In this document: one piece after another, positions 17,355 through 43,493 of the stretch | Position numbering within the stretch: the stretch's first letter is position 1 | How the letters are laid out: every line of letters begins with the position of its first letter | Source of the DNA: Candidatus Iainarchaeum sp. | GTDB lineage: Archaea; Iainarchaeota; Iainarchaeia; Iainarchaeales; DTGL01 | Length of the DNA stretch: 44,705 nucleotides | Assembly: GCA_043809265.1 (NCBI GenBank) | Contig: JAZDDY010000093.1 | Location: 1-44,705, forward strand | Direction of reading: 5' to 3' | Made by a program: the position numbers and the translations under genes | The notes under the pieces: model-generated | Database searches by the model: none | Told to the model about the DNA's origin: nothing | What the model saw: the letters and a program-made list of their open reading frames with translations, nothing else

Positions 17355-18587
17355 ATGTATGGCAAATCCGCAACTGAAAGTCACAGCCGCAAGAAGGAGT
17401 TGATTGTTAATTTTGTTATAACTCAAATCGCAAAAGGTTATTTCCCATCAAGGGCTGACATTGAAAGAAGTCTTTCCATTGACTTGAGAACTTACTTCGG
17501 AAATCTGTGGTCTGTCTATGAGTGCGCGGGACTTTCATATGAGAAAGTCAAAAAAATGAAATCTGAACAGAAAGGCAGGTTTATCACTAATTCAAAGCGC
17601 AGGTTTTCGGTAGACGAAGGAAGAAAGCAAATAGCCACTTTTCTAGTAAAGGCGGTCGAAAAAGGTCGCTTCCCAGGCTATAATGAAATCCAAGAACAGT
17701 TTGGGATTAGTCTTCAGACATATTTCAATAGCACAAGTGATGCGTATAGATTTGCACAAATAGACTGCCAAAAGAGGCCCATTAACCCATTTATTTCTCT
17801 TGAAAAAGAAAAAAAGTTAGTTGAAATTTCAAAGAAGTTGTTGTGTAGTCTGGATTTTGAAATATTGCGGTGCAACCACAATAAGGGAGCGGATTTGGTT
17901 GTGATGGATAAAGAAGGCAATATTATTCCGGTTGAACTCAAAGCTTACCATCGAAATGTCAACATTCCAATAGGCTTTTTTGGGCATTATGAAACTGAAC
18001 TGAAGCAACTCCAGCAGTATATAGAACAACACCAAGCGCCCTACGGGATTCTTATAACAACCACTGATAGAATCAATGCCAAGATTCCGGAAAACATTGT
18101 TTTATTGAATGGACGTGTCTTGAGGAAAAAATTAATAGAAGAAGAATTGACTGGGCTTTTGCCGTCTTTGGATTGGATAAGGAACACTTATTGTACTTCC
18201 AGTAAACAAGTTGAAATTTTGAAAAAGAGAAATAAGATCGCCAATTACATAATAAGCCAAGTTGCACTCGACCATTATCCGTCCATGAGGGAAACAGAGA
18301 GCATACTGAAACTTAACGTCAGAACTTACTTCCCCGAGAATATGCTTGGGGCATATCGATTTTCAGAAGTAAAGTTGCCCTGCCGTTATCTTTCAAAACA
18401 AAAAGCAACGGAGGAAATTGCTGGTCATGTCCGGCGTGAAGTTAAAAATGGCAAATATCCTTCACTCGAACGTATAGAGCAACAATTCCATATAAGCTTG
18501 AGAACATATTTTGACAGTCCTCGACAAATGTTTGAGCTGGCTGGCGTTGAAGCCCCTCGCAGATTTTTGGACAAAACTGGGACCTAA
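17355..18587 (+). CDS. Mrr-like PD-(D/E)xK nuclease flanked by four homing-endonuclease-associated-type helical repeats
   Basis: Four repeats of about 45 aa, two N-terminal and two C-terminal: ...AKGYFPSRADIERSLSIDLRTYFGNLWSVYECAGL; ...EKGRFPGYNEIQEQFGISLQTYFNSTSDAYRFAQI; ...LDHYPSMRETESILKLNVRTYFPENMLGAYRFSEV; ...KNGKYPSLERIEQQFHISLRTYFDSPRQMFELAGV. The central GADLVVMDKEGNIIPVELKAY...YGILITTTDRI...IVLLNGRVL matches the Mrr-cat D...ExK pattern. The coding sequence is visibly more AT-rich than its neighbours. Confidence 0.6.
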   Translation: MYGKSATESHSRKKELIVNFVITQIAKGYFPSRADIERSLSIDLRTYFGNLWSVYECAGLSYEKVKKMKSEQKGRFITNSKRRFSVDEGRKQIATFLVKAVEKGRFPGYNEIQEQFGISLQTYFNSTSDAYRFAQIDCQKRPINPFISLEKEKKLVEISKKLLCSLDFEILRCNHNKGADLVVMDKEGNIIPVELKAYHRNVNIPIGFFGHYETELKQLQQYIEQHQAPYGILITTTDRINAKIPENIVLLNGRVLRKKLIEEELTGLLPSLDWIRNTYCTSSKQVEILKKRNKIANYIISQVALDHYPSMRETESILKLNVRTYFPENMLGAYRFSEVKLPCRYLSKQKATEEIAGHVRREVKNGKYPSLERIEQQFHISLRTYFDSPRQMFELAGVEAPRRFLDKTGT

Positions 18588-18592
18588 CTTTG

Positions 18593-19609
18593 TTAGACCT
18601 TCAATTTTTTGATTCCTTGGGGCCTTATGATACCTTTTTCTGTTATAAAACCGGAAATGTATCTGCCTTTTGTCACATCAAAGCCGGGATTCAATGCATG
18701 GCTTTTTTCGTTCGCAACCCTTTTGCCTTCAATGAACAATACTTCCCTTTCGTCCCTTTCCTCTATTTTGATATCGGCGCCCTTTTTGCATTTCAAATCT
18801 ATTGTGCTCAGCGGCGCCGCAACATAAAATGGAATTCCGTTTTCTTTTGCCAGCACTGCTTTCTCGTAAGTGCCGATTTTGTTTGCAATATCTCCGTTCC
18901 TTGCAACCCTGTCGGCGCCCACAATGCAAATATCCACGTCCCCTTTTTGCATATAATATCCTGCGGCGTTGTCAGCAATTATTTTGTGCTCGATTCCTTC
19001 ATTCGCGAGTTCCCATGCTGTGAGCCTTGCGCCCTGCAATCTCGGCCTTGTCTCATCCGCAAAAACGAAAATCCTGTTGCCTTCCCTTTTAGCCCAATAA
19101 ATCGGCGCAAGCGCCGAACCCCAGTCCTGCATTGCAAGCCATCCTGCATTGCAGTGCGTGAGCACCCTCGCCCCGTCGTGCAACAGAATCGAGCCATTTT
19201 CCCCGATAAGCCGCCCGTTTTCAACATAGTCTGCGCTGATTTCCGCTGCTTCCTTCACCGCGGCCCTGTTCGCTTCCATCCCAATTTTTCCCTTAACCGC
19301 TTTTTCCATTCTTTCGATTGCCCAAAAAAGATCGCGCGCAGTTGGCCTTGTTTTTCTCAATTCTTCAAATCCTTCCTTTTCTTTCCCTTCCATCACGGCC
19401 TGCGCAGCCCCGAATGCAGCCGCCGCTCCAATAGAGCCTGCCCCGCGGACAACCATGTCCTTGATTGCTTTTGCTGTTTCATGGTGGTTTTTGAAGGAAG
19501 CAATCCTGAATTTGTGCGGGAGCAGGGTTTGGTCTATCATTTTCACTGTGCGGCCTTCAGGCCAGACTGCGGTGAACCACCTGTTTTTTCCGCCAAGCCT
19601 TACGTTCAT
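18593..19609 (-). CDS. mtnA: eIF-2B-related sugar-phosphate isomerase (methylthioribose-1-phosphate / ribose-1,5-bisphosphate isomerase family, MtnA-like)
   Basis: IDQTLLPHKF, VRGAGSIGAAAAFG and IVGADRVARNGDIANKIGTY...IPFYVAAP are hallmark motifs of this family. Confidence 0.88.
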   Translation of the reverse strand: MNVRLGGKNRWFTAVWPEGRTVKMIDQTLLPHKFRIASFKNHHETAKAIKDMVVRGAGSIGAAAAFGAAQAVMEGKEKEGFEELRKTRPTARDLFWAIERMEKAVKGKIGMEANRAAVKEAAEISADYVENGRLIGENGSILLHDGARVLTHCNAGWLAMQDWGSALAPIYWAKREGNRIFVFADETRPRLQGARLTAWELANEGIEHKIIADNAAGYYMQKGDVDICIVGADRVARNGDIANKIGTYEKAVLAKENGIPFYVAAPLSTIDLKCKKGADIKIEERDEREVLFIEGKRVANEKSHALNPGFDVTKGRYISGFITEKGIIRPQGIKKLKV

Positions 19610-19956
19610 TTTTTTCCACCAGCCGCCAGAAATTCAGCAAAAAATTCAAGGTCTTCCTCGGATTCTTTTCCGGAACCAAGGATTTTGATTTGCAATTTTG
19701 CCTTTTTTGCAATTTTAAACAGGGAGAAAAAGTTTTTGAACAGTTCTTTTCTTTCGCGCTGGTCGGATTCAAGGAATTCTTCGAAAGAAACATAGAATTC
19801 TTTTCCGCTTTCCGCTGCTTTCTTCAATGCCTGCAGGTCAAAACATTTAGAGCGCTCAGGCCTCAAAAGCACGGCTTTCGCCTTGCGGTCCTGCAGTGCA
19901 GAATTCAATTCCTTGAGGTCCCGCGCTTCCCTGACGCCTGGCAATTTGTCTGCCAT
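19606..19956 (-). CDS. hypothetical protein; weak resemblance to the C-terminal half of RNase P protein Rpp30
   Basis: AVLLRPERSKCFDLQALKKAAESGKEFYVSFEEFL...FKIAKKAKLQIKILGSGKESEEDL..FLAAGG follows the pattern of the Rpp30 C-terminal half, but the protein is only 116 aa. 4-nt overlap with mtnA. Confidence 0.3.
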   Translation of the reverse strand: MADKLPGVREARDLKELNSALQDRKAKAVLLRPERSKCFDLQALKKAAESGKEFYVSFEEFLESDQRERKELFKNFFSLFKIAKKAKLQIKILGSGKESEEDLEFFAEFLAAGGKK

Positions 19957-23057: not shown

Positions 23058-25313
23058 TTATTTTTTTTCTTCTTTCGGAGCCTGCTGCATTTTTTCGAGG
23101 CTGGCGCCGATGGCTTTCGAGAAGTTTTTCTCGAAGTTGTCGAGCTCGTCCATTTTCTGGTCCATCAATTTCATGCGCAAATTGAACTGTGCTTCCATCT
23201 GCTTGGACGCGCTGTTGAATGCGGCAATGCGCTGGTTGAATTTTTCGATATTCGTGTCGATTGCTTTCAGGAACTGTTCCTTGAACAGGTTCAGTTCTTT
23301 CACCCTTGCCTGGAGTTCTTCAGCGCCGACGGCTTTCAGGGCTTCCGCGCGCGCCTGCAACTTTGCTTTTTCCATTGCGTCAAGGTTTTCCCTCATTTTT
23401 GCGGCCATCGAGGCTTCCATTTCCTTCAATACGGCCTGTGCAAGCTTTCTCCTGATTGTAAGCAGATCCATTGAAGCATAGGGCTCCAAGCCTTTCAGGA
23501 GCGCGGCCTTTTTGTTTATCAAATCGGAGGCCTGCGCCGAAAGCGCTTTCATTTCTTCCTGCGTTGTTTTCTGGAATTCCCTGAGTTCGCTTTTCGATTT
23601 TATTATTTCGGAGTTGAGCTGCACAACCAATTTGCCTTTTTCTTTTTCCATTTCCTGTATTTGTTTGTTTATTTCGAGTATTTTTTCGTCGTAGCCTTTT
23701 TTCAGGCCTTCTATTTCGCTTATCCTCGGCTTGACCTTTTCCGAGTATTCCTTTTCTATTTCGTTCATTCTCTTTGTGATTTTTTCGTCAATGTCCTCGT
23801 CGATGCCCTCGATTTCTTTTGCTTTTTTCTGGGCGTCGGCAATCGTTTCCTCCAATTTTTTGGTTGTCTGCGCGCTTTTTTCCTCTATTTCGGCAAGCCT
23901 TTTCTTTATTTTTTCGCTGTATTCCTTTTCGATGCCTGAAACCTGCTCGTTTATGGTCCTGCTGATTTCGGCCCTTATCCTGTCCTTTGTTTTTTCGAGG
24001 TCCGCGATTTTCGCTTTCACTTTTTCCGGGTCGATTTTTGCAATCAGTTCGCCAAATTTCCTGATTTCCTCGTTTATTTTTGCCTCTAAGTCTTTCTGGT
24101 TTTCGAATTTCACCCTTTCTATTTTTTCCCTTGCCTCGTTCATCACGTCCTCTATGACTTCCGATTCGAGTTCGAGGGTTTTTGTCACGCGTGAATCCAG
24201 CCTTTTTATTTCGGCCTGGGCTTTTGAAACGAAGTCCTCGGTTTCATTCTTTGAATCCTTGAGGCTTTCCTCTACTTCCGAAAAGAGCGTGCTCTTCAGG
24301 CCGGAGAAGTCTTTCTGGGCCTTGTCGAACCTTGCAGCAAGCGTCGAATCGAGGTCTTTTATGTAAGCGGCCCTTTTTTCTTCCAGTTCGGCCTGCAGCG
24401 CCCTTATCCTGCCTTTCTGTTCGTCCCTTATGTCTTTTTTGGCGGCTTCCTTTTCTTTCAGCATTTCGTTTAGCGCCGTGTCCTTTGAGGCTTCGAATTC
24501 CTTGGCGGCGGCGTCCTTGTCTGTTTCAAAGTCCTTGCTGAACGCTTCGATTTCCCCGTCGATTTCTTTCCTTGCCTTTTCGACAAACGCCCTTAATTCG
24601 TCGCTGTTTTCTTTTGCTTTGGCAAGCAGCTGTGTCAGGCCCTCGGCCTTTGTGTTCTCGATTTTTTTGCCTATTTCGCCTATTTCTTCCTTGAGTTTTT
24701 CGTGCTTTTTCTCCCATTCGCCGAGCTCTTCGAGGCCGCGCTTCATCTCCTCGTTTATTTTCCTTATCTCTTTTACCCGTTGCTCAAGAATCTGGTCGAC
24801 TTCGCCTTTCTTTTCCTCCATTTCCGAGCTTATTTTTTCGCTCAGGAGCGCGCTTTTTGAATTTATAAGCGTTGAGATTTTCTTGTACTCCTTGTCAAGG
24901 CCGTCCTTTATCTTCCTGTCAATTGTCAAATCCAGGTCTTCTTTTGTTTTCTTTATCTCGTCGGCCTTTTTGTTGACTGTCGCCATTACCGCCTTTTCCC
25001 AGGAATCCCTGTCTTTTTTTTTGTCCGAATCCTCTTCAAGGCCTTCGGAAAGCCGTCTCATCAGGTCTTCATCCGCGTCAGGCAGTGTTTCAGGCAGGTC
25101 TTCATCCTGTTCGGGTTCGGGGGCAGGCATCGGCTTCGAAGGTTGGGGTTTCGGAGCCTCTTTTTTCAGGCCTCTCACTTCGGCGAGAATCTGTTTTGCG
25201 TCTTTTTCGCCTATGCCGACATCCCTCAGGTTTCTTATTATTTCGTCTTCACCCAGATCCAATGCAATCAGTTTCCTGACCGATTCGAGGATAATGCTTT
25301 TTTTGTCCGGCAT
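23058..25313 (-). CDS. 751-aa E/K-rich coiled-coil protein with UBA-like N-terminal domain
   Basis: N-terminal ~45 aa (ILESVRKLIALDLGEDEIIRNLRDVGIGEKDAKQILAEV), a P/E-rich linker, then about 650 aa of uninterrupted heptad-like E/K/L/I sequence. Internal repeats include IEKEYSEKIKKRLAEIE and IEKEYSEKVKPRISEIE. Confidence 0.7.
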   Translation of the reverse strand: MPDKKSIILESVRKLIALDLGEDEIIRNLRDVGIGEKDAKQILAEVRGLKKEAPKPQPSKPMPAPEPEQDEDLPETLPDADEDLMRRLSEGLEEDSDKKKDRDSWEKAVMATVNKKADEIKKTKEDLDLTIDRKIKDGLDKEYKKISTLINSKSALLSEKISSEMEEKKGEVDQILEQRVKEIRKINEEMKRGLEELGEWEKKHEKLKEEIGEIGKKIENTKAEGLTQLLAKAKENSDELRAFVEKARKEIDGEIEAFSKDFETDKDAAAKEFEASKDTALNEMLKEKEAAKKDIRDEQKGRIRALQAELEEKRAAYIKDLDSTLAARFDKAQKDFSGLKSTLFSEVEESLKDSKNETEDFVSKAQAEIKRLDSRVTKTLELESEVIEDVMNEAREKIERVKFENQKDLEAKINEEIRKFGELIAKIDPEKVKAKIADLEKTKDRIRAEISRTINEQVSGIEKEYSEKIKKRLAEIEEKSAQTTKKLEETIADAQKKAKEIEGIDEDIDEKITKRMNEIEKEYSEKVKPRISEIEGLKKGYDEKILEINKQIQEMEKEKGKLVVQLNSEIIKSKSELREFQKTTQEEMKALSAQASDLINKKAALLKGLEPYASMDLLTIRRKLAQAVLKEMEASMAAKMRENLDAMEKAKLQARAEALKAVGAEELQARVKELNLFKEQFLKAIDTNIEKFNQRIAAFNSASKQMEAQFNLRMKLMDQKMDELDNFEKNFSKAIGASLEKMQQAPKEEKK

Positions 25314-32671: not shown

Positions 32672-34157
32672 TCACTCCAGTTTCTGGAATAGAATGCCCT
32701 GTTTTGAGATTTTGGCGCCGGCCATTGTAAGGTCGAAAGCGCATTCTTCGATGCCTTTCCTTTCCGCATTCAATTGTGCGAGGATTTTTTCGCTTGAAGC
32801 CGGAATGAAAGGCCACAAAAGCAGCGCAACCACCCTGAGCGAATCAGCCATCGAATAAAGGATATCGTCCAGTTCCTTTCCCTGTTTTTTCCAGGGCTCC
32901 TTTTCGCTCACAAAAACATTGCATGATTTCACAAAGCCCATTATTTCCGAAAGCGCCATGTGCAGTTCGAACGCCTTCATGTATGCCCTTATTTTGTTCA
33001 AATCCAGCTTTTCCTTCAGTTCTTTGGCTGTCTGCCCTTCGGGAATGCAGCCGTTGCAGGATTTTTCCAGCAGCGACAGCGTTCTATTGACCAAATTGCC
33101 CAATTCGTTTGCCAATTCATCGTTGTTCCTTTTCTTGAGGCCTTCTTCGGAGAAAAAGCCGTCTTCGCCGAATGGAATTTCCCTTATCAGATAATACCTG
33201 GCGGCGTCGACATTGAATTTTTTTGCGAGCTCGACAGGGTTTATTACAGTGCCCTTGCTTTTGCTCATTTTTTCGCCATGTTCTGTGTTGATGAACCCGT
33301 GCACCAGGACTGTTTTCGGCAGCGGGATGCCTGCGCTTGCGAGAATGCTCCACCATATCACCGTGTGGTGCCATAAAATGTCCTTTCCTATAATGTGAAT
33401 GTCGGCAGGCCAGAATTTCTCGAACTGCGCGTTCGGGTAATCGATGCCGCTTATGTAATTGATGAGCGCGTCCATCCAGACATACTGGACGTGCTTTTTG
33501 TTTATCGGCACAGGCACGCCCCAGTCGAAGCTCGACCTTGAAACGCTCAAATCCTTTAGTTCTTCCTTCAGCCTGTTCCGTATTTCCTCTTTTTTGCCTT
33601 TCGACCAGATTGCATCCGGGTTTTCATCCAGGTATTCCAGGATTTTTTCCCGGTATTTGCCCATCTGGAAAAAATAAGATTCCTCGCTTACGATTTCGCA
33701 CTCTTTTTCGTGCACCGGGCACTTGTCATTGACCAGGTCCTTCTCTAGGAAAAAAGTCTCGCATTCGGTGCAATAATAGCCGGAGTATTTTCCCAAATAT
33801 ATTTCGCCTTTTTCGAATATTTCCTGGAAAATGTCCTGTGCCACCTTTATATGCTCCGGTTCGGTGGTGCGGATGAACCGGTCATTGGAAATGTTCCAAG
33901 CCGCGCACAATTCCCTGAACTTTTCGGCCTTTTCGTCCACAAATTCCTGGGGGGTTTTTCCGGCGACTTTTGCGGCCTTCATTATTTTCTGGCCGTGCTC
34001 GTCAGTGCCTGTGAGAAAAAACACTTCGTCGCCCAAAAGCCTGTGCCATCGCGCAAGCACGTCAGCGCAGAGCTTTTCATAGGCGTGGCCGAAGATGGGG
34101 CTCACTAGACGGATAATCTATTGCCGTAGTGATATAGAAAGTTTTTTTCAAGCCCAT
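32672..34157 (-). CDS. metG: methionine--tRNA ligase, reading frame interrupted by one extra nucleotide inside the HIGH motif (near 34091)
   Basis: The main ORF 32672-34105 begins at ...PIFGHAYEKLCADVLARWHRLLGDEVFFLTGTDEHG and carries a Zn knuckle (CTECE...CPVHEKEC) and KMSKS. The true N-terminus MGLKKTFYITTAIDYPSSEPHL is encoded from the ATG at 34157 in the adjacent frame and stops at 34077. Confidence 0.85.
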
Positions 34158-34503
34158 TCACCCCCGCTTCAGTTTATGCTGCTTGGAAGGTTTTCTTCAA
34201 ATAGTGCACGCTCCAAAGAAAGCGATATTATCCTTTTCCACTTAAAGTATTTTAAAATGGTTTCCCGCATTCCCTTTGCGGATTTGAAGCGAAAACTCTT
34301 ATGTAGCACCCGGTTAGCTTTCCGAACTCCATAGTAATAAAACCAATTTACCGCTATTCTCTACTGTAATTTTTTTTCAGTCAGGGCTGTGCCCGATCTC
34401 TCAACACTGATTTGTCAGGATTCAGGGGAAGCGAGCTCCAGGCCTTCTTTTAAGGCAGGAAATCCCCAATATATGGCGAGAGCGTGTTGCAGGCGGGTTT
34501 GGC

Positions 34504-36609
34504 ATGGTTGAAAGGGTAAGGGTCGAATCTTCCGAAAAGGAAAGCCCTTTTGTGGAAAAATTCCAGCAGTTTTTCGAATCCGTTTACCGGAAGGAAATCC
34601 AAAGACTTGTCGCAAAATACCCTGACGAGCGCTCCTTAAACATTGATTTCAACGATTTGGAAGAATTCGATTTCAAGCTTGCCGAGGACCTCATAGCACA
34701 GCCTGATTTTTTGATTGAGGCGGCATCCCTTGCCGCGAGGAAGCTTGACGTGCCATCCCTTGATATCGAGGATTTTGCCCCGCACGTGCGCTTCCACAGC
34801 CTTCCTGTCGACAAAAGCGTGATGTTAAGGGACATCGGCTCAAGGCACATAGGGAAAATGCTTTGTGTCGAGGGCGTCATAAAACAGGTCACGGATGTTT
34901 TGCCGAAGCTGAAAATGGCGTCCTGGAAATGCAACCGCTGCGGCAATGTGTACAGGGTCCTGCAAAAGGATTCAGGAGTGGTGCAGCCAGCGTTTTGCGA
35001 GTGCAGGCACCGCGATTTTTCGCTTGTAGCAGAAGATTCTGATTTTGTGGATTACCAGAAAATCCAGATACAGGAGTCCTTGGAGTTCCTTAAAGGGAAC
35101 GCGCAGCCGACAAGCGTTGACGTTTATGTCGCCGATGACCTGGTGAACAGGGTTGTCCCTGGCGACAAAATAAAAATCGTGGGCATTCTCAGACTGTATC
35201 CTGCAAAGGAAAACAAGGTCGTGTTCGGCAGGTTCATTGAAACATTGCATTTGACGCAGACAATGCAGGAATTCGAGGACATAGAAATCAGCAAGGAAGA
35301 AGAGCAGGAAATAAAGGAATTGTCCAAAAAATTTGACATTTATGAAAAGCTCGTGGCAAGCATTGCACCGAGCATTTACGGGCACGAAACAGTCAAGGAA
35401 GCGATTGCCCTCCAGCTGTTCGGCGGCGCAAAAAAAATCCTGCCCAACGACCAGCAGATAAGGGGCAACATACACCTGCTCCTTGTCGGCGACCCGGGTG
35501 TTGCAAAATCGCAGATGCTGATGGCAACCCACAACATCGCCCCGAAAAGCATTTACGTGGGAGGAAAAACCACAAGCGCTGTAGGCCTTACCGCAACCGC
35601 AGTAAAGGACGAGTTCGGCGAAGGCGGCTGGACACTGAAGGCAGGCGCCCTGGTTTTGGCGAACGGCGGGATTGCAATGTGCGACGAGCTCGACAAAATG
35701 GATGCCGATGAAAGGGTGGCATTGCACGAGGCAATGGAGCAGGGCACAATCAGCGTCGCAAAGGCAGGCATTGTCACAAGGTTCAAGACAGACACAAGCA
35801 TCCTTGCCGCCGCAAACCCGAAATTCTCGCGCTTCGACCCGTACCAGCCGTTCATAGAGCAATTGAATTTGCCGCCAACGCTCATTTCGCGCTTTGATTT
35901 GTTTTTCATGATCCGCGACATCCTGGACAGGACAAGCGACACAAAAATCGCAGCGCACATCCTGAAAACACACCAGGCAGGCGCAAAACTGTTCCAGGCG
36001 AGAAGGAAAGGCAAGACACTGAAAAAAGAGGAAATGAAGGAAATCGAAGACATTGTGATGCCCACAATCCACAAAGACCTGCTCAAAAAATACATTTCCT
36101 TTGCAAGGCAGAACGTTTTTCCCACGCTTTCAAAGGAGGCAATCCAGACAATAAGCGATTTCTATGTGGATTTGAGGGAGCGCGGAAAGCAGGAAGGCAG
36201 CTTTTCGGCAACCCACAGGCAGCTCGAAGGTTTGGTCAGGTTGTCGGAGGCATCCGCAAGGGTGAGGTTAAGCGACACTGTCGAAAAGCAGGATGCCGAA
36301 AGGGCAATAAGGCTTTTGAAAAGCTCATTGCGCGATGTTGTCACCGACCCGGAAACAGGCAAAATCGACATTGACATCATCGCCACAGGCCAGACGCATT
36401 CGCAGGTAGACCTGATGAGAAAAGTGCTCGGCATAATAAAGGAAAAGAACGAGCAAATGGATTCCGTGCCATTGAAAGAAGTGATGGACGCGGCTGCAGC
36501 CATGAACATCGACAGCGAGAAAGCCGACGACATCATAAGAAAACTTGAGCGGAAAGGCGAAATCTACAGGCCAAAGCACGGCTTTGTGAAGCCCACAGAA
36601 AGCAAGTGA
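34504..36609 (+). CDS. mcm: MCM replicative helicase
   Basis: Zn motif CNRCGN...CECRH, Walker A GDPGVAKSQ, Walker B CDELDKM, arginine-finger SRFDL, and a C-terminal wHTH. 701 aa with no intein. Confidence 0.93.
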   Translation: MVERVRVESSEKESPFVEKFQQFFESVYRKEIQRLVAKYPDERSLNIDFNDLEEFDFKLAEDLIAQPDFLIEAASLAARKLDVPSLDIEDFAPHVRFHSLPVDKSVMLRDIGSRHIGKMLCVEGVIKQVTDVLPKLKMASWKCNRCGNVYRVLQKDSGVVQPAFCECRHRDFSLVAEDSDFVDYQKIQIQESLEFLKGNAQPTSVDVYVADDLVNRVVPGDKIKIVGILRLYPAKENKVVFGRFIETLHLTQTMQEFEDIEISKEEEQEIKELSKKFDIYEKLVASIAPSIYGHETVKEAIALQLFGGAKKILPNDQQIRGNIHLLLVGDPGVAKSQMLMATHNIAPKSIYVGGKTTSAVGLTATAVKDEFGEGGWTLKAGALVLANGGIAMCDELDKMDADERVALHEAMEQGTISVAKAGIVTRFKTDTSILAAANPKFSRFDPYQPFIEQLNLPPTLISRFDLFFMIRDILDRTSDTKIAAHILKTHQAGAKLFQARRKGKTLKKEEMKEIEDIVMPTIHKDLLKKYISFARQNVFPTLSKEAIQTISDFYVDLRERGKQEGSFSATHRQLEGLVRLSEASARVRLSDTVEKQDAERAIRLLKSSLRDVVTDPETGKIDIDIIATGQTHSQVDLMRKVLGIIKEKNEQMDSVPLKEVMDAAAAMNIDSEKADDIIRKLERKGEIYRPKHGFVKPTESK

Positions 36610-36685: not shown

Positions 36686-37060
36686 TCAGGGCGCTGTCTC
36701 TACAATAATATCCACGTCGGTAATAGCAGTATATAATTTGGCGTCCACAAGTTTTTGGCGTATTATGGCATCGAACTCTGTCTTTAGCGAGTTAATTTCA
36801 GCCAGCGTCACATTATTGCCGCCGACCAATACGGTTATTGTATTAGGTGAAGTGGAAGTCACGGCGTCCTTCACTTCGGCAAGGTAATAGAATTTTTCCT
36901 GTGCGTTCAGGATTTTGAGGGCCTCGCTTTTCACGACCGCTGTTTTTCCCATTGCCGTCATTGTGGAAGGCACAAGCCTGAGCATTCCAAGGACAAGCAG
37001 GAGGGCGAGCGTAGTTATAAGGATCATTTCGAAAGAGGCTTGGGCTTTTTTTCCCTTCAT
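36686..37060 (-). CDS. pilin-like protein with class III signal peptide
   Basis: MKGKKAQ/ASFEMILITTLALLLVLG. Last gene of the type IV filament operon. Confidence 0.65.
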   Translation of the reverse strand: MKGKKAQASFEMILITTLALLLVLGMLRLVPSTMTAMGKTAVVKSEALKILNAQEKFYYLAEVKDAVTSTSPNTITVLVGGNNVTLAEINSLKTEFDAIIRQKLVDAKLYTAITDVDIIVETAP

Positions 37061-37090
37061 TTTTTTTCTCCTTTTAATCGCGTGGGCCGA

Positions 37091-37606
37091 TTAGGTGCTC
37101 CTTACAAGGACAGTGTTCCCGTTTTTTTCAATAATAACCTTGTCCTTTGGGGTCTGGTAGCCTATAAGCGTGTTCGGTTTGGGGCAGACACCAGAGCAGC
37201 CGTGGAAGTTCGAGCAGTTAAGGGTAATTCCCTGCAGGACCCTTATCGAGCCGGGATAGCCTATGTCTTGCATGTTCGATATTCCCGCGGTGCAGTCCAT
37301 TGAATTCGACTGCATGCCGAACCTCGCATTATAGTCTATGGTGTTTGTCGCGCTGTTGCACTTTATTTCAGTGCAGTCCTCGGCAAAAAGCCAGATTGTT
37401 TTCCTGCTGTCCCCGCTTAACGACCCAATCTCGTTTATGGCGTTGGCGAGTTTCATTGCCGCGAGTTTTGCCTGCCCTGTGCGGTTGACCGCGACTATCT
37501 TGAAGCTGGCTGCGTCGACGGCCGGCTGTATGACTGTTGTAAGGTAGTAAAGCATTATCAGGAACAGGAAAAGGAATTCTATGGATGTCTGGCCTTTCCT
37601 GTTCAT
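37091..37606 (-). CDS. Cys-rich pilin-like protein with class III signal peptide
   Basis: MNRKGQ/TSIEFLFLFLIMLYYL with 7 Cys in the mature part. The ATG at 37606 directly follows the peptidase stop. Confidence 0.65.
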   Translation of the reverse strand: MNRKGQTSIEFLFLFLIMLYYLTTVIQPAVDAASFKIVAVNRTGQAKLAAMKLANAINEIGSLSGDSRKTIWLFAEDCTEIKCNSATNTIDYNARFGMQSNSMDCTAGISNMQDIGYPGSIRVLQGITLNCSNFHGCSGVCPKPNTLIGYQTPKDKVIIEKNGNTVLVRST

Positions 37607-38586
37607 GCCAAAACCGCGTTCCAAAGCAAATCACCAACCAAATTCAGGGCAACATATGCGACCAGTATTGCAGGCACCATCGGCGCCGATTCCTTGACCT
37701 GGATGAAATCTTCAAGCTTTCCCTCTTTCACCAGTTTTTTCAGCTTGCCGATTTCTTGCGGTTCAAGGCCTCTTGCCATGCGGCTGTCCGCAAGCACTTC
37801 CCTTTCTTTTGCGGCTCCTTCAGGAACCGTTACTTTATATTGTTTGATGTAGTTAATAAAGCTTTTCATGTCAAGCAGGCCTTCCCCGCGCTCCCTTTCA
37901 ATGCCGCCGCCTTTTGCCACAATGGTTTCAGCAGGAATCATCCCTTCCTCAAGCGAGGTTATCTTCACGGTTTTCCGCAAAAAAACCCTGCTTGCAAGCA
38001 TAAGCTTGAAAGCAAAGTAAAGCAAAAATGCGGAAAAAACAAAAAACAGGAACATGCCGAACGAAGCCTGGTAAAAGGCAAGCCATGCGATTGCCAGCGC
38101 AACGGTTATTGCGAGTTCGGTTGCAAGTTCCCTGAACGCTTTTTCCCCGCGCGAGCGCTTCAATACAATGAACACTGTCACAGGCAGCATCGAGAAAAGC
38201 GTGAAAACAAACAAAGTTATTGGAAAAAGCGGGATTGCAAGAGGCTCAAAAATCTTCAAGGAATAAAATCCGAGTTTTCCGGCAATAAACAGGTTCAGGG
38301 GGTTGAGCGCTGCAATTCCTGTGAAAAGCTTTACATCGCCGCCTGCCCAGACGCCTGCCTTATAGAGCAAAAGCGAGAACAGGAAAGCATAGGTTGTGGA
38401 CATAATGCAGTAGGCGGCAATCCAATAATCCGCTGCAATGAAAGCGTAAGCAATGTGGAGTGCCAAACCGAGCGCGATAAGCGAATAGGATAGCCTGTTC
38501 GGCACAATTCGTTCCTTCAGATCCGTGTATGCCGCTATCGCGAGCCCTGCGAATGAAATCAGGAAGAGCAGGAGGGAAAAAAGCAT
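37603..38586 (-). CDS. A24-family prepilin/preflagellin peptidase (PibD/FlaK/EppA-like)
   Basis: Polytopic membrane protein with the two catalytic Asp contexts AAYTDLKERIVPN and GVWAGGDVKLF. A soluble insertion of about 90 aa lies before the last TM helix. Confidence 0.8.
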   Translation of the reverse strand: MLFSLLLFLISFAGLAIAAYTDLKERIVPNRLSYSLIALGLALHIAYAFIAADYWIAAYCIMSTTYAFLFSLLLYKAGVWAGGDVKLFTGIAALNPLNLFIAGKLGFYSLKIFEPLAIPLFPITLFVFTLFSMLPVTVFIVLKRSRGEKAFRELATELAITVALAIAWLAFYQASFGMFLFFVFSAFLLYFAFKLMLASRVFLRKTVKITSLEEGMIPAETIVAKGGGIERERGEGLLDMKSFINYIKQYKVTVPEGAAKEREVLADSRMARGLEPQEIGKLKKLVKEGKLEDFIQVKESAPMVPAILVAYVALNLVGDLLWNAVLA

Positions 38587-38639
38587 AGTTAATAGGGGTT
38601 ATTGAATGTTTTTATTCCTTCTGCAATCGGAAGAAGAAG

Positions 38640-38810
38640 TTATTTTAGGATGGAAGAAAGGGTTGAATCGCCGTAGTTCCTGACCTTTGCAATCGATTTG
38701 TCCGCTATGCCCTGGATTGCAGTCACAAGCACCGAAACCACAATCACCAGGCCCAACACGAATGTCAACAGTATCAGGTAATCGAACGAAACCTGCGCCC
38801 TTTCTTCCAT
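38640..38810 (-). CDS. 56-aa mini-pilin with class III signal peptide (not in ORF track)
   Basis: Hand translation gives MEERAQ/VSFDYLILLTFVLGLVIVVSVLVTAIQGIADKSIAKVRNYGDSTLSSILK*. ATG at 38810 and TAA at 38640-38642. Confidence 0.55.
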   Translation of the reverse strand: MEERAQVSFDYLILLTFVLGLVIVVSVLVTAIQGIADKSIAKVRNYGDSTLSSILK

Positions 38811-38831
38811 TTTGATTGCCTCTCGGAGTAC

Positions 38832-39131
38832 CTAAGTCTTGCAGGCCGGGGCATTGGACCAATCCAGGCCTATCTTCAGAACGCATTGCGACCCAAGCCA
38901 CTCGCATTCATCGCCAGGCACCTCGGCATCATCAACCATGTTGGCTGTCGCCGCGCAAAATTCCGATGACCCCTTAGCACTGCACAGGCTGTTTATCTGC
39001 GACTTGTAGCCTTCACATTGTGTCGGCCCCACCGAGCCAAGCACGAATACAAGCACTATTGCTGCAACCGCTATTCCTGCGCCTATCATCAAAAGATACT
39101 CCAATGCTCCTTGCCCTTTAAAGTTTATCAT
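38832..39131 (-). CDS. Cys-rich pilin with class III signal peptide
   Basis: MINFKGQ/GALEYLLMIGAGIAVAAIVLVFVLG with 6 Cys in the 70-aa mature domain. Confidence 0.7.
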   Translation of the reverse strand: MINFKGQGALEYLLMIGAGIAVAAIVLVFVLGSVGPTQCEGYKSQINSLCSAKGSSEFCAATANMVDDAEVPGDECEWLGSQCVLKIGLDWSNAPACKT

Positions 39132-39184
39132 TTTCCATTCCTCCGCTTTTTTTTGAGCATTCTTTGAGCGGGCTTTGTGTTCCT

Positions 39185-39331
39185 TTACCTGTTGTATTCT
39201 TTTCCTATTTCTGAGCCCACTGCCTTTGGAACGCTCTTCAAGTATACTCCTATTGCTGTGGCTGCCGCCACTGCGCCGCCCAAAATCAAAAGGTATTCAA
39301 CCGATGTCTGGGCTTTTTCTTCCTTCAGCAT
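39185..39331 (-). CDS. 48-aa mini-pilin with class III signal peptide (not in ORF track)
   Basis: Hand translation gives MLKEEKAQ/TSVEYLLILGGAVAAATAIGVYLKSVPKAVGSEIGKEYNR*. The ATG at 39331 lies 4 nt after the TadC-like stop. TAA at 39185-39187. Confidence 0.55.
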   Translation of the reverse strand: MLKEEKAQTSVEYLLILGGAVAAATAIGVYLKSVPKAVGSEIGKEYNR

Positions 39332-39335
39332 TTTT

Positions 39336-40388
39336 TTATCCTCCGAAAAATCCCTGTGTCACGATGTTCGACACAAAGTATATCATATACGCTATTAACA
39401 ATAAGATTGGGATGTATATAAAGCTTTTGGTTATTTTGCCTTCCCTGACCAATGCAATCATGAGGCCGATTGCCGCAGCCTCTATCACTATGTATAATGC
39501 GACAAACAGCATTATCGAATCTGTCACACAAGTCCAGTAATCCGCAGGGCACTTTTCTTTCGGGCACAAGAAACTGGCCTCCTGGCTTTTGCAGTCCAGG
39601 CAGGAGGCAAGGTCGCCCTGGCAGCATGCGAAGCATTTGCCGCCTGTCATCGAGCCCATCATTTGCGGGGTCTGCATCATCAGGAAGCCGACTATCGACA
39701 TGACCAGGCCGAAAATGAACGGTGCGACAACCGCTCCTGCGGCAATCATGAAAAGGACCTGCATTAGCGTGCTGCTTTTCCTTTCATTGATTATCCTCTG
39801 GTTTGCCTTGACATCGTCCGAAATCTCATCCAAAATGTCGGCAAGGCTTGCGCCTGCGGAAATCGAGTCGAGGATAATGTTGACTGCCCTTGTCACGATC
39901 CTGCTTGTGATGTTCCGCGAAAACCCTTTCAGGGAATTCTCCAAATTTTCGCCCTCTTCAAGCCTTCTCAGGACAGTGTTCATTTCTTCAGTGAGCGGGC
40001 CGTATTCGCTTGAGCTTATTCCCCTCAACGCATATTCGAAAGTGCCTCCGGCCTTAAGCGTGTCGGCCATTTGCTTCAATGCGTCAGGCAGGTTGTTTTC
40101 AATGCTGTCGTTTCTCCTGACCGCCTTGAGATAGGGATAGCCCACCATGAGGTCAAAAATGACTATGAAGGTGATTATTGACATTAGAAGGCTGTGGACC
40201 CAGTGAACTGAAATAAGCTTGAGCCCGATTAACGGGATTAACCCGAAGAGAAGCATCAGCACCAATGATACTCCGGTCGCAACCACAAATGATATTCCAA
40301 TCCATGCCGCGGGCTTGAATGGCCACCTTATCTGCCTGAGGTATTCCGTGTATGTCGCCCATATTTCTTTCGGTTTCATTTTTTCCAC
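39336..40388 (-). CDS. T2SSF-domain platform protein (TadC-like) with Cys-rich loop
   Basis: Single T2SSF-type domain (LPDALKQMADTLKAGGTFEYALRGIS...). TM helices flank CFACCQGDLASCLDCKSQEASFLCPKEKCPADYWTC. Confidence 0.8.
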   Translation of the reverse strand: MEKMKPKEIWATYTEYLRQIRWPFKPAAWIGISFVVATGVSLVLMLLFGLIPLIGLKLISVHWVHSLLMSIITFIVIFDLMVGYPYLKAVRRNDSIENNLPDALKQMADTLKAGGTFEYALRGISSSEYGPLTEEMNTVLRRLEEGENLENSLKGFSRNITSRIVTRAVNIILDSISAGASLADILDEISDDVKANQRIINERKSSTLMQVLFMIAAGAVVAPFIFGLVMSIVGFLMMQTPQMMGSMTGGKCFACCQGDLASCLDCKSQEASFLCPKEKCPADYWTCVTDSIMLFVALYIVIEAAAIGLMIALVREGKITKSFIYIPILLLIAYMIYFVSNIVTQGFFGG

Positions 40389-40389
40389 C

Positions 40390-41547
40390 CTAGACGTGCG
40401 GTTGAATCATTGTGATGAACATGAAAAGCCACACAAGCAGCAACGGCATGACCAGCAAGTAAAACAACATGATGATATTTAATGACAGCGGGATGTTCTT
40501 GAAGCTGCTTGTCGCCATCGGCCCCCCCTCTTCAGGGGACATGATCGGCGAGTTCCTTACCCCGCCGAGTATTGCCACAAACACAGGCAAAACTATCGCC
40601 ATGAAAATCAATATCACGCCCAAAAAGTTCATTTTTTCCCCGAACTCCCTCATTTTCATCCTTAATTCGAAGGAAACGTCCTCGGCGATTTCATTCATTA
40701 TATTCGAAAGGTTGCCGCCTGTTTTCAGGGCGCGGATTGTGTGCATCAATGCGTTCCTGAGCGCGCTTGATTCAGTGCGCAGCGCAAGGTGCCTTAATGC
40801 GACCTGCGTGTCAGTGCCTTCCTCGATTTCAGTGATTGTGCGGCTGAATTCCTCGCTAAGCGCGCCATAGTCCGCGCTTGCCACGGTTTGCAATGTCCTG
40901 TACAATCCTATGCCTGCACTGAGCTGTGTTGCAATGTGCCTGAGCGCGAAAGGCAGTTCCCTGCTTATCATTTTGCCTCGGGTCTGCGCCCTTTGTTTCG
41001 GGATAAGTCCCATTATAAGCGCGGCAAAGCAGAAAGCCAAAAACGACAGGAACAAGCCGAGCTGCCATGAGCCTATGTTGATGGATTGCAGAATCAGGAA
41101 AGCGATAAGCGTGATTATGAAAACTATGAATGAAACGATTGTCGTGAGCGCAAGCCATTGCTTTCCGGAATAGCGCATGTTCGCCGAGTAAAGATAGTAC
41201 TCGAGCTGTTTCGACCAGGGCAGTTTTTCAAACAGCTTGTAGAATGCGCCGGTGATGAAGCCGAGCTTCAGGAACAGGCTGCCCAGGCCGCTGACCACCT
41301 TATTGTCAGAATCCTTCAAATCCTCGATTTTTTGCACATCAAGGCCTTTTTCGGAGCCGCCTGAGATTATGCCCCGCAATTCGCTCATTTTGCCTGTGTC
41401 TTCGCCGTAGGTCACGCCCTGCGCAGAATATTTTTTCCTCATTTTTTCTACGATTTTTTCCACTTTTTCCATGTCCGCCTTTTCGGCGTCTTTTGAGGTC
41501 TCCATTATGCCCTCTTTTTTTTCGTCTTTCCCGAACCCGAGCGGCAT
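40390..41547 (-). CDS. T2SSF-domain platform protein (TadB-like)
   Basis: LPFALRHIATQLSAGIGLYRTLQTVASADYGALSEEFSRTITEIEEGTDTQVALRHLA is a typical GspF/TadB-type domain, with TM helices on both sides. Confidence 0.8.
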   Translation of the reverse strand: MPLGFGKDEKKEGIMETSKDAEKADMEKVEKIVEKMRKKYSAQGVTYGEDTGKMSELRGIISGGSEKGLDVQKIEDLKDSDNKVVSGLGSLFLKLGFITGAFYKLFEKLPWSKQLEYYLYSANMRYSGKQWLALTTIVSFIVFIITLIAFLILQSINIGSWQLGLFLSFLAFCFAALIMGLIPKQRAQTRGKMISRELPFALRHIATQLSAGIGLYRTLQTVASADYGALSEEFSRTITEIEEGTDTQVALRHLALRTESSALRNALMHTIRALKTGGNLSNIMNEIAEDVSFELRMKMREFGEKMNFLGVILIFMAIVLPVFVAILGGVRNSPIMSPEEGGPMATSSFKNIPLSLNIIMLFYLLVMPLLLVWLFMFITMIQPHV

Positions 41548-43493
41548 TACTTCTCACTCTCCGCAAGCAGGAACGATTTCATCCTCTTTGAGGTTTCGGT
41601 TATCGAACGGACCTTGTTTTTCACAAGGCCTTCCAAAAACAACTGCCTTTTCTTCAATTCTTTTTCGAGTTGCGGGACATTCAGGCCTGAAAGCCTTCCG
41701 AGTTCCCGCAAATAATTGCACGGAACGCCTGTTTTTTTCAGGTCGTCCTTTACCGGGTCCCATTCATAGATTGCCTGCACATTGGCCTTGCCTTCAAGGA
41801 CACCGCCGACCTCGCTTATTTCAGTAACTCTTCTGATAGTGCCCTTTTTCCTGTCGTGCAGCCTGTTTTCCACGAGTATAAAGTTAAGGCCTGAAAGCAT
41901 TGTTTCAGGCACGCTCATCGGCGGGTTTGTCACTCTCACCAAAGTTTCCTGTGCGGTGTTTGCGTGCACTGTTCCAAGAGAGCCGTCGTGGCCTGTGTTC
42001 ATTGCAGTGAAAAGCGTGAATGCCTCGTCGTGCCTGATTTCACCGACAACAATCCTGTCAGGCCTCATCCTGAGCGAATTTTTTGTAAGAATGTCAAGGG
42101 TAATTTCCCCCTTGTTTTCAAGGCCAGGCGGCCTTGCCTCAAACCTTATCCAGTGGTCCAATGGAAGGTTTAATTCCGCGGTGTCTTCGATGCTGATAAC
42201 CCTTTCGGTCACAGGGATAAAAGAGGAAAGCACGTTCAACAATGTTGTTTTTCCGCTTCCGGTGCCTCCCGCAATTAGTATGTTGGCTGGCCGCGTTTCA
42301 CTGCCTTCGACTGCGAGCCAGAGGAATGCCGCAACCTCGGTATTGATGGTGCCGAAATTTATGAGGTCGACGATCGAAAAAGGGTCTGCGCGGAATTTCC
42401 TGATTGTAAGGGTTGGCCCGGAAACGCTTATCGGCTTTATGGTGGCATTCACCCTGCTGCCGTCAGGCAGCCTTGCGTCCAAAAGCGGGCTTGAAAAGTC
42501 CACTCTCCTGCCGATTTCCCTCCCGACCCTGTTGATGAGGTCTATAACTTCTTCTTCGGTGTAAAACTCGATGTTTGTTTTCATCATTTCGTAATCCCTG
42601 TGGAAAACAAACACCGGCTTCTTATCGCCGGTGATCATTATTTCCTCAAGCCGGTCGTCCCTTACAAGCTGGTCGATAAGGCCGTATCCCACCATCTCCC
42701 TTATCACGGCTTCAGTGTAAAAATTCATTTTGCCTTTCGGTATCTGGATTTCTGGCGCGGACTGCAGTATGTCGAGGATTCTCTGCCTGTAAACAGACCT
42801 TCTCTGTTCCGGGTCGCGGATTTTATAGGGCGAAATCGTGATGAGCCTTGTGGCCGCCTCCTTGATTGTGCGGATAATCCTTTTCTCGCTCCCTGTCGGC
42901 CTTGGCACAGGCACATAATAATACAATAGTTTTTCTCCCGGAATCTTGTAGATTTTGATTCCGTTGCCGTAGGATTCCACTTCAATCTTGTTTGCAGATT
43001 CAAACATTTTCTGGGTTTCGCTTTCCAGTTCGGTGCCCTCGATTGCGTTTTCCGCGCTTGACATCGGCTGGTCAGGCGGATTTTCATCTGCCGGCGGAAT
43101 TTCAAAAGCGTCGGCTGTTTTTTTCGGCTGCTCTCGCTGAACAGGCTGCCTTACCGGCCCGGGCTTTTCAAAATCGTCAAAAATAGAATCGGCATCGGTT
43201 ATTTCCGGCTCTTTTTCCACAACAGGCCTTTCAAAAGCCACCTGCCCTGCCTTGGGCGCAGCCTGCTGCCTTCTGGGCACAGGCTCGAATTCATCCCCCA
43301 ATTCTTTTTTCAGGCCTTCCCTTACCGCGCTGATTTTCCTTTCAAGGTCTTCTTCGCCAGACTGCTCTTCCGGGCCGGCCGGCGGTATGCCCATGCCGTC
43401 ATCTTCTGGAAAAGCGAAATCAGCCCCTGGCTTTTTAGGGCTCTTTTTGGCCTTTTCGATAAGGTCCTTCAAGTAGTCGTCCTGCACCATCAT
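41547..43493 (-). CDS. type IV filament/secretion ATPase (FlaI/TadA/VirB11 family) with long acidic N-terminal extension
   Basis: Walker A AGGTGSGKTT, ISIEDTAEL, GEIRHDEA and TGHDGSLGTVHAN boxes. The first ~170 aa are P/E/D-rich low complexity. Confidence 0.9.
   Translation of the reverse strand: MMVQDDYLKDLIEKAKKSPKKPGADFAFPEDDGMGIPPAGPEEQSGEEDLERKISAVREGLKKELGDEFEPVPRRQQAAPKAGQVAFERPVVEKEPEITDADSIFDDFEKPGPVRQPVQREQPKKTADAFEIPPADENPPDQPMSSAENAIEGTELESETQKMFESANKIEVESYGNGIKIYKIPGEKLLYYYVPVPRPTGSEKRIIRTIKEAATRLITISPYKIRDPEQRRSVYRQRILDILQSAPEIQIPKGKMNFYTEAVIREMVGYGLIDQLVRDDRLEEIMITGDKKPVFVFHRDYEMMKTNIEFYTEEEVIDLINRVGREIGRRVDFSSPLLDARLPDGSRVNATIKPISVSGPTLTIRKFRADPFSIVDLINFGTINTEVAAFLWLAVEGSETRPANILIAGGTGSGKTTLLNVLSSFIPVTERVISIEDTAELNLPLDHWIRFEARPPGLENKGEITLDILTKNSLRMRPDRIVVGEIRHDEAFTLFTAMNTGHDGSLGTVHANTAQETLVRVTNPPMSVPETMLSGLNFILVENRLHDRKKGTIRRVTEISEVGGVLEGKANVQAIYEWDPVKDDLKKTGVPCNYLRELGRLSGLNVPQLEKELKKRQLFLEGLVKNKVRSITETSKRMKSFLLAESEK

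Follow-up and report, generated by a model that had tools for sequence, protein, structure and literature searches.

The gene for methionyl-tRNA synthetase (MetRS), metG, lies on the minus strand of a 44,705-nt stretch of DNA from Candidatus Iainarchaeum sp. (contig JAZDDY010000093.1, assembly GCA_043809265.1; the stretch at its full length is called the window), where it is divided between two reading frames by one extra base inside the DNA for the catalytic HIGH motif. This insertion is shared by 18 distinct loci, and both segments of the gene are, judging from their substitution patterns, selected in their own frames; the feature is very probably biological and functional. The ribosome most likely slips +1 at the site to make MetRS. 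Several findings lay beyond what the window itself could reveal: the site is widespread yet patchy, a 95%-identical relative is in frame, and the site is linked to a homing endonuclease specific to metG. The combined explanation, that of a working metG with one extra base, a slip at CUU-C and an origin tied to the endonuclease, is given a probability of about 0.7.

Two reading frames of metG

Read in frame 0 (34157-34092), the beginning of metG encodes MGLKKTFYITTAIDYPSSEPHL, the last codon being CTT at 34094-34092, and past this codon the same frame gives CGG CCA CGC CTA and a TGA at 34079-34077. When the C at 34091 is omitted, the sequence continues as GGC CAC GCC TAT (GHAYEK...) in a frame of 472 codons that ends with a stop at 32674-32672. 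A sequence-only reading of the window had described an open reading frame (ORF) from 34157 that ends at this TGA, with the enzyme resuming in the +1 frame, and had placed the frame change at CUU-CGG-C within the HIGH motif, where skipping one C rebuilds EPHLGHAY. The translations confirm the split, and the MetRS of Thermus thermophilus aligns across the junction (...AEPHLGHAY... matches; best PDB match 1a8h/3vu8, E = 4e-135). The features of the region are listed below, with L001, L002 and L003 denoting loci of relatives and P0361 the MetRS of an in-frame relative.

34158..34165, minus strand: Shine-Dalgarno-like GGGGGTGA before metG, conserved in L001-L003; the stop codon of the relatives' homing endonuclease lies in or beside this element
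34092..34157, minus strand: metG segment 1, frame 0, (MG)LKKTFYITTAIDYPSSEPHL; ATG at 34157, likely start TTG at 34151
34088..34100, minus strand: frozen 13-nt core CCC CAT CTT C GGC (Pro-His-Leu, skipped C, Gly), from 18 distinct frameshifted loci
34088..34094, minus strand: proposed shift heptamer CUU CGG C, with CUU in the P-site, CGG in the frame-0 A-site and GGC in the +1 A-site, by an inferred mechanism
34091..34091, minus strand: extra (skipped) base C, the deletion of which yields exactly the junction of P0361, 95% identical and in frame
34077..34079, minus strand: frame-0 stop TGA, four codons past CUU; the unshifted product is a 26-aa peptide
32672..34090, minus strand: metG segment 2, +1 frame, GHAYEK ... 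KMSKS ... LFQKLE and stop, 472 codons, with Pfam, NCBIfam and PDB matches
34166..34503, no strand: spacer between metG and the divergent MCM gene; in relatives, a LAGLIDADG homing endonuclease gene occupies this position

The repaired protein of 494 aa scores 616 bits over residues 4-494 against the NCBIfam metG equivalog NF008900 (TIGR00398; cut-off 598 bits), and with PHLGH at the junction and KMSKS further on it qualifies as a methionine--tRNA ligase. Either ORF alone fails to cover the MetRS family model, and both are needed for one conserved protein. The heptamer CTTCGGC, with 16 copies in the window against 8.9 expected, is statistically unremarkable by itself; what goes beyond chance is that a conserved enzyme is split at that exact base, and that the split recurs elsewhere. 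A second metG, which the first reading had recommended looking for, was not found in the 44.7-kb window. Overlapping ORF pairs checked in the window proved to be separate intact genes, and the conserved window genes that were checked (ABCE1, Elp3, eRF1/Pelota-like, MCM, phosphoglycerate mutase, T2SSE ATPase and a class II aminoacyl-tRNA synthetase) are all intact.

The ORF does open at ATG 34157, as first reported, but this is probably not where translation begins. The ATG directly abuts the Shine-Dalgarno-like GGGGGTGA, and L001 (9948-9956, compared with window positions 34149-34157) has AGG in its place, so that TTG 34151 is the likelier start and would give MKKTFYITT, like the in-frame relatives.

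Recurrence of the insertion in relatives

Among the 120 closest MetRS proteins, most of which are named Candidatus Diapherotrites, 21 start with ...[AVL][SN]PIFGHAYEK, a signature of +1 read-through in which ...PIFGHAYEK is the +1 reading of (G)AG CCC CAT CTT C GG. At the DNA level, the three closest loci, L001, L002 and L003 (proteins 83, 80 and 77% identical), match CCC CAT CTT C GGC CAC exactly, and their first 20 codons lie in frame 0. Scanning metagenome contigs with a degenerate pattern yielded 13 further frameshifted loci and three more (L112, L113 and L122) were reached by other routes, the total being 18 distinct frameshifted DNA sequences from NCBI, JGI, ENA and Logan assemblies. Locus L094, one of the carriers of the site, belongs to a closed genome of 1.24 Mb, that of archaeon GW2011_AR10 / Ca. 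Iainarchaeum (AJF60811.1). Frameshifted metG genes are annotated as N-terminally truncated proteins of 477-483 aa or as proteins of about 700 aa; many genomes of Diapherotrites / Iainarchaeota, the closed reference genome among them, accordingly have a wrong MetRS annotation.

In the 3' segment, the rate of non-synonymous substitution (dN) relative to L001-L003 is 0.10-0.16, with synonymous sites saturated. The 5' segment, compared with the same loci in frame 0, shows 5-7 synonymous and 0-3 non-synonymous differences (six and none for L002, seven and two for L003), and its +1 reading is interrupted by stop codons. In each complete frameshifted gene the extra base is the sole disruption, without the relaxed selection or additional lesions expected of a pseudogene, and across the frameshifted loci the frame-0 stop lies 4, 9 or 16 codons past the site. 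The sequence-only reading had left three causes open, and had proposed looking for the extra C in orthologues. Since the identical insertion is present in 18 distinct loci from independent assemblies, and since the two segments are each maintained by purifying selection in their respective frames, an assembly error and a recent pseudogene can be set aside, and by this exclusion a programmed +1 frameshift with a slip at CUU-C is the favoured cause.

The trait is not fixed even among close relatives. P0361 is an in-frame MetRS of 494 aa that is 95% identical to the repaired window protein, without gaps and in the same 90% cluster; its first 40 residues equal those of the repaired protein, including the junction SSEPHLGHAYEK, which points to turnover of the frame state at shallow depth. 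When 125 MetRS sequences are placed on a neighbour-joining tree, the 33 frameshifted and 91 in-frame tips are intermixed, which takes at least 17 changes of state. This pattern fits a homing cycle of invasion, fixation, decay of the endonuclease and occasional reversion by loss of one base, and fits a fixed regulatory device less well.

Some candidates fell outside the conserved set. L089 (Ga0137420_1306038, minus strand, ~2480), a MetRS-like fragment, has CCG CAT CTC C GGC and several frame changes within 300 nt; either the contig is of low quality or the gene is a genuine pseudogene. Of the 24 matches to the pattern in metagenomes, ten (L084, L085, L090, L092, L093, L097, L099, L101, L105 and L106) are unrelated in-frame genes, of a family in which ...FGHAYEK...HGEAV... 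is encoded in one frame. P0063, which starts 'MFGH...' and was considered as a GUU-C variant, has the standard CTT-C site in its DNA, the gene call beginning on ATC. The site was absent from the viral contigs scanned. A 41-aa profile of the frameshift signature returned fragments of at most 72 aa, none of them frameshifted, and among representatives at 50% identity no frameshift signature was seen, the clade being collapsed into in-frame representatives. A scan of genome contigs with a MetRS-alignment profile found two archaeal metagenome-assembled genomes (L004 and L013), the rest among the matches listed being distant bacterial in-frame genes; these in-frame genes served solely as background for codons and for the endonuclease.

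Anatomy of the shift site

Across the 18 loci, the core of the site is nearly frozen: CCC and CAT are found in all 18, CTT in 17 (ATT in L113), the skipped C in 17 (T in L096) and GGC in 17 (GGG in L113). Flanking synonymous sites vary, the upstream Pro codon being CCG in seven loci, CCT in seven, CCA in three and CCC in one, and Ala being encoded by all four synonyms. The in-frame relatives vary at the core codons as well (L108, CCC CAT CTT GGG; L109, CCG CAC CTA GGG; L111, CCT CAT CTG GGT; L004, CCC CAT TTA GGG). PHLGH is present in all 91 in-frame close homologues, and in the 41 in-frame genes that could be parsed from 80 GTDB loci (among the matches listed) CTT occurs once and GGC in about half. 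GGC is found in 17 of the 18 frameshifted loci versus none of the seven in-frame loci of DPANN archaea and candidate phyla radiation (CPR) bacteria read at the DNA level.

In both variants, AUU-C-GGG of L113 and CUU-U-GGC of L096, a +1 slip still gives the motif, as HIGH in L113 and HLGH in L096. At each form of the site the P-site codon permits +1 re-pairing by sequence (CUU to UUC; AUU to UUC in L113; CUU to UUU in L096), and each of the three insertions may be viewed as a duplicated T (CTC to CTTC, ATC to ATTC and CTT to CTTT). The question of whether CGG is a rare codon had been raised with the first reading; its usage is low, at 4.1 per thousand in the window (56 of 728 Arg codons, 7.7%) and 1.6-4.1 per thousand across loci, but not extreme. 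The frame-0 A-site codon of L096 is UGG and not CGG. GGC, the codon next read in the +1 frame, is the top Gly codon of the window (502 of 907; 36.9 per thousand).

In the decoding proposed here, the first ~20 codons would be translated in frame 0 until peptidyl-tRNA-Leu sits on CUU (34094-34092) and CGG, an Arg codon of low usage, comes next in frame 0. The tRNA-Leu would then re-pair one base 3', on UUC, and the abundant Gly codon GGC would be decoded, giving ...SSEPHL-GHAYEK... and a normal enzyme. A tRNA-Leu(GAG) would read CUU by G-U wobble and, on UUC, would pair G-C, A-U and G-U; the same re-pairing logic applies to CUU-U in prfB and CUU-A in Ty1. Unshifted ribosomes should stop four codons on, with a predicted peptide end of ...PHLRPRL, and the predicted tryptic junction peptide of the CUU slip is TFYITTAIDYPSSEPHLGHAYEK.

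A homing endonuclease upstream of metG

Directly upstream of metG in L002 and L003 is an ORF with LAGLIDADG matches. The encoded endonuclease combines a triple helix-turn-helix with two catalytic LAGLIDADG motifs (LIGFRLGD and LAGYTDAEG). Both motifs are invariant in 28 sequences, all of which are matched by PF14528, and the nearest solved structure is PI-PfuI (1dq3). At least 159 homologues exist in DPANN archaea and CPR bacteria. Wherever the context was examined, the gene is found directly upstream of metG and in the same orientation, amid unrelated surroundings and in two domains of life. The element appears to be metG-specific across both domains. Several of the endonuclease proteins end in ...GGEVVYGSRKILHYNSN, a tail encoded by the beginning of metG read in another frame; the endonuclease gene thus overlaps metG, and co-transcription of the pair is probable.

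A frameshifted metG lies beside the endonuclease in L002, L003, L098, L112, L113 and L122, with a remnant in L001, and from contigs of matching length we infer two further pairs of endonuclease and frameshifted MetRS (P0122 with P0100, and P0128 with P0079). The endonuclease is absent from 80 in-frame GTDB metG loci (L004-L083, among the matches listed) and from the in-frame loci L108, L109 and L111. Within the clade of the window there is a series of decay, from a full-length endonuclease of 368 aa in L003 through an N-terminally truncated one in L002 and a 52-aa remnant in L001 (E = 1e-17) to none in the window, where a hidden Markov model (HMM) search of six-frame translations gave no endonuclease match. 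A possible remnant at 34166-34503 was rejected: its suggestive DNA alignment with endonuclease 3' ends was no better than that of shuffled sequence, and there was no HMM match.

These observations suggest a possible origin, in which the extra base would be the hallmark of alleles that have, or once had, a free-standing LAGLIDADG homing endonuclease directly upstream, and would not be a regulatory invention. The DNA of the HIGH motif is the nearest strongly conserved sequence to the endonuclease gene, at a distance of ~60-100 bp, and could be its target. A one-base insertion there would render an allele uncuttable by its own endonuclease, as it would wholly break the spacing of a LAGLIDADG site; in metG such an insertion would normally be lethal, and would be tolerable solely where the ribosome can slip, at CUU-C. 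Because survival of the insertion would need slippage, the surrounding bases would be held under selection. In the lineage of the window, the endonuclease would since have been lost and the frameshift retained. That the insertion is the immunity mark of a selfish element, with +1 slippage paying for resistance, is put forward tentatively, and the odds seem to lie somewhat against it. If true, it would amount to a natural cleave-and-rescue or homing drive, and would explain the patchy, reversible spread of the frameshift in DPANN archaea.

Other details of these loci were recorded alongside. In L112 (5180-5221), and in columns 430-450 of the alignment, many endonuclease ORFs run into the first ~12 codons of metG, with the tail ...YGSRKILHYNSN, and stop inside its ATT GAT codons. 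Two in-frame metG genes that have the endonuclease beside them show odd HIGH regions, PHCGHLYEK in L119 (~4190-4215) and PPHIGHALEE in L116 (~5190-5215), and these may be substitution-type escapes at the same DNA site. The triple helix-turn-helix part of endonuclease P0121 (residues 9-142; L003 3596-3997) has a sub-threshold match to Cbp1, a CRISPR repeat-binding protein (NF040595, 30 bits versus a cut-off of 140). In several relatives, the divergent MCM helicase holds a LAGLIDADG intein (MCM products of 1179-1238 aa; L002 5134-8841, L108 1-2005 and L122 1-1068); the MCM of the window (34504-36609) is without an intein and has 701 aa.

Weighing the explanations

A number of observations count against the combined explanation. 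In the genomes that bear the frameshift, in-frame CUU-CGG is not avoided in other genes (3 observed versus 4.1 expected, NUU-CGG behaving likewise), and with these dicodons at the expected rate the heptamer alone can be no very strong shifter. CGG is of low usage yet not rare. No conserved RNA structure was detected around the site (consensus -4.4 kcal/mol, no covariation, z-score -0.39), and no Shine-Dalgarno-like stimulator lies 3 nt upstream of it; stimulators of either kind are not required at Ty1-type sites. No tRNA-Leu or tRNA-Arg gene is present in the window or the fetched loci. A slip on CUU leaves the invariance of CCC and CAT unexplained, these being the least-used Pro codon and the less-used His codon of the window. 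As to the endonuclease, three loci carry it and yet have metG in frame (L116, 4001-5107, Nanoarchaeota; L118, 3001-3951, Woesebacteria; L119, 3001-4119, Woesearchaeota), and it is lacking in seven frameshifted loci whose upstream sequence extends beyond 2.5 kb. The association was scored as raw counts of loci, in which kinship is ignored, and two of the frameshifted loci that bear the endonuclease were found by searching from the endonuclease side.

Of the readings that need no ribosomal slip, a single-base assembly or sequencing error in the window is barely credible. An extra base is the commonest kind of artefact, and the 95%-identical P0361 is in frame; however, the insertion occupies the same position in loci from different projects and assemblers, a closed genome among them, it co-varies with codon choice (GGC) and with the adjacent endonuclease gene, and the other conserved window genes checked are intact. 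A decaying pseudogene, with MetRS activity coming from another genomic copy, is very improbable. The window makes up 44.7 kb of the genome, so a second metG could lie elsewhere, and the window MetRS is of bacterial-like type, its best non-DPANN matches (among the matches listed) being bacterial, but purifying selection on both segments has continued beyond synonymous saturation, frame 0 is conserved in the 5' segment, second lesions are absent from the complete frameshifted genes, and in the closed AR10 genome the annotated MetRS is the frameshifted gene itself. Expression without any frameshift could proceed from an internal start (GTG 34105), as a split enzyme made of the 26-aa peptide and the large fragment, or through a four-base-decoding tRNA. 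The GTG does open a long ORF in the window, and conservation of the 5' segment in frame 0 would also suit a split enzyme. These variants are nevertheless highly unlikely, as the +1-frame start is not conserved (GTA or CTA in other clades, where gene callers chose an incidental TTG or ATC), no Shine-Dalgarno-like element precedes it, truncation would cost the enzyme strand beta-1 as well as the first His of HIGH, and there is no tRNA evidence for four-base decoding in the window or the fetched loci.

Two readings accept a frameshift and differ on where or why it takes place; both are unlikely, if clearly less so than the preceding ones. With CCC and CAT left unaccounted for by the CUU slip, a +1 slip on CCC-C (34100-34097), giving ...EP-IF-GHAYEK, was kept as an alternative, with a predicted junction peptide of ...SSEPIFGHAYEK in place of ...SSEPHLGHAYEK. 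Re-pairing of tRNA-Pro on CCC-C would be perfect, CCC is invariant in all frameshifted sequences despite being used for 105 of the 615 Pro codons of the window, and the two variants (ATA for ATC, TTT for TTC) leave the +1-frame amino acid unchanged. Its product would lack the first His of HIGH, however, which is present in all 91 in-frame close homologues, and the closest of the in-frame relatives has PHLGH. The insertion is located 6 nt 3' of CCC-C, at the very position where the ancestral protein is restored by a slip on CUU, and the frozen +1-frame third positions of ATC, TTC and GGC are not explained by a CCC slip either. The second alternative is a regulatory programmed frameshift that would tune MetRS to the supply of charged tRNA-Arg(CCG), independently of the endonuclease. 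The site has the form of a Ty1-type sensor and persists in endonuclease-free lineages, but nothing connects the supply of Arg-tRNA logically with MetRS, the distribution is patchy on the neighbour-joining tree, L096 has UGG for CGG, and the frameshift is dispensable in the 95%-identical relative. Under this regulatory reading, the linkage with the endonuclease would be a coincidence.

Comparison with known systems

The slip proposed at CUU-C resembles two well-known sites. In prfB (RF2), CUU UGA C likewise has CUU in the P-site, with tRNA-Leu re-pairing on UUN, and a C after the frame-0 A-site codon; the E-site codon ends in AU in both (UAU in prfB, CAU here), an early frame-0 stop follows, and the site is conserved in many species. 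The differences are that the A-site codon of prfB is a stop and that of metG the sense codon CGG, that AGGGGG lies 3 nt upstream in prfB and AAGCCC in metG, that the autoregulatory logic of prfB is not evident here, and that the host is archaeal. The prfB site is also near-universal, unlike the patchy and reversible metG trait. The CUU AGG C heptamer of yeast Ty1 and ABP140 is similarly built from CUU, a low-usage Arg codon and C. The Ty1 slip is attributed to slow decoding of the Arg codon together with a weakly wobble-paired P-site tRNA. The Arg codon is AGG in Ty1 and CGG in metG (AGG being the major Arg codon of the window), and the metG site further differs in involving archaeal ribosomes, an essential housekeeping gene and a shift inside a catalytic motif.

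Within Archaea, the -1 frameshift of fucA1 in Saccharolobus solfataricus is the sole demonstrated cellular frameshift (PMC8211752). According to a 2021 review of archaeal recoding, -1 events alone have been shown (fucA1 and some viruses), +1 shifting has merely been suggested for virus HSTV-2, and a Mg chelatase frameshift is presumed, its direction being unspecified (PMC8211752). Like metG, fucA1 is an archaeal gene of two ORFs, both of which are needed for a conserved enzyme, and relatives have full-length in-frame orthologues; it differs in using a -1 shift on A-AAA-AAT with a stem-loop, in encoding a non-essential enzyme and in being confined to a single lineage. The literature searched for a metG or MetRS frameshift in Diapherotrites/Iainarchaeum together with a homing endonuclease contained no description of the site. 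With the metG site, a cellular gene of Archaea would have its first well-supported +1 frameshift, set in an essential aminoacyl-tRNA synthetase with the shift within its catalytic signature. It is new as to host domain, gene, position and evolutionary context, and as read from its codons it otherwise works like other CUU-type +1 sites.

For the endonuclease, the closest parallel is intronless homing, in which free-standing endonucleases cut a conserved gene near their own insertion point and the carrier allele is uncuttable (PMC2988022). As in the seg and mob genes of T-even phages, an intergenic endonuclease lies beside a conserved target gene and is patchily distributed, with decayed copies. 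Those enzymes are GIY-YIG or HNH proteins of phages, and the metG endonuclease is a LAGLIDADG protein of cellular DPANN/CPR genomes. Protection by an insertion that breaks the reading frame has not been described before and is offered for metG as a hypothesis. The arrangement also recalls the synthetic Cleave-and-Rescue (ClvR) elements, in which a nuclease is directed against an essential gene and sits in tight linkage with a recoded copy of that gene that resists cleavage (PMC6442612). A nuclease and a resistant copy of an essential gene are placed together in both, cleavage of metG being hypothetical; ClvR differs in its engineered Cas9, in its insect hosts and in not homing. The link between the frameshift and a selfish endonuclease is plausible but unproven. 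It suggests a new interplay of selfish DNA and decoding, and a natural model for resistance alleles in nuclease gene drives.

Other genes of the window

Four long ORFs of the window had no Pfam match, one of them (23058-25313, minus strand) at E <= 1e-3 and the others (17355-18587 and 18590-19795 on the plus strand, and 4026-5423 on the minus strand) at 1e-5. Beside metG and MCM, a type IV pilus- or archaellum-like cluster occupies 36686-43493 and is syntenic in L001, L002 and L111. Pfam confirmed a T2SSE ATPase and an A24 prepilin peptidase in the window copy of the cluster, and two T2SSF genes and small class III signal peptide proteins are annotated solely in the three relatives.

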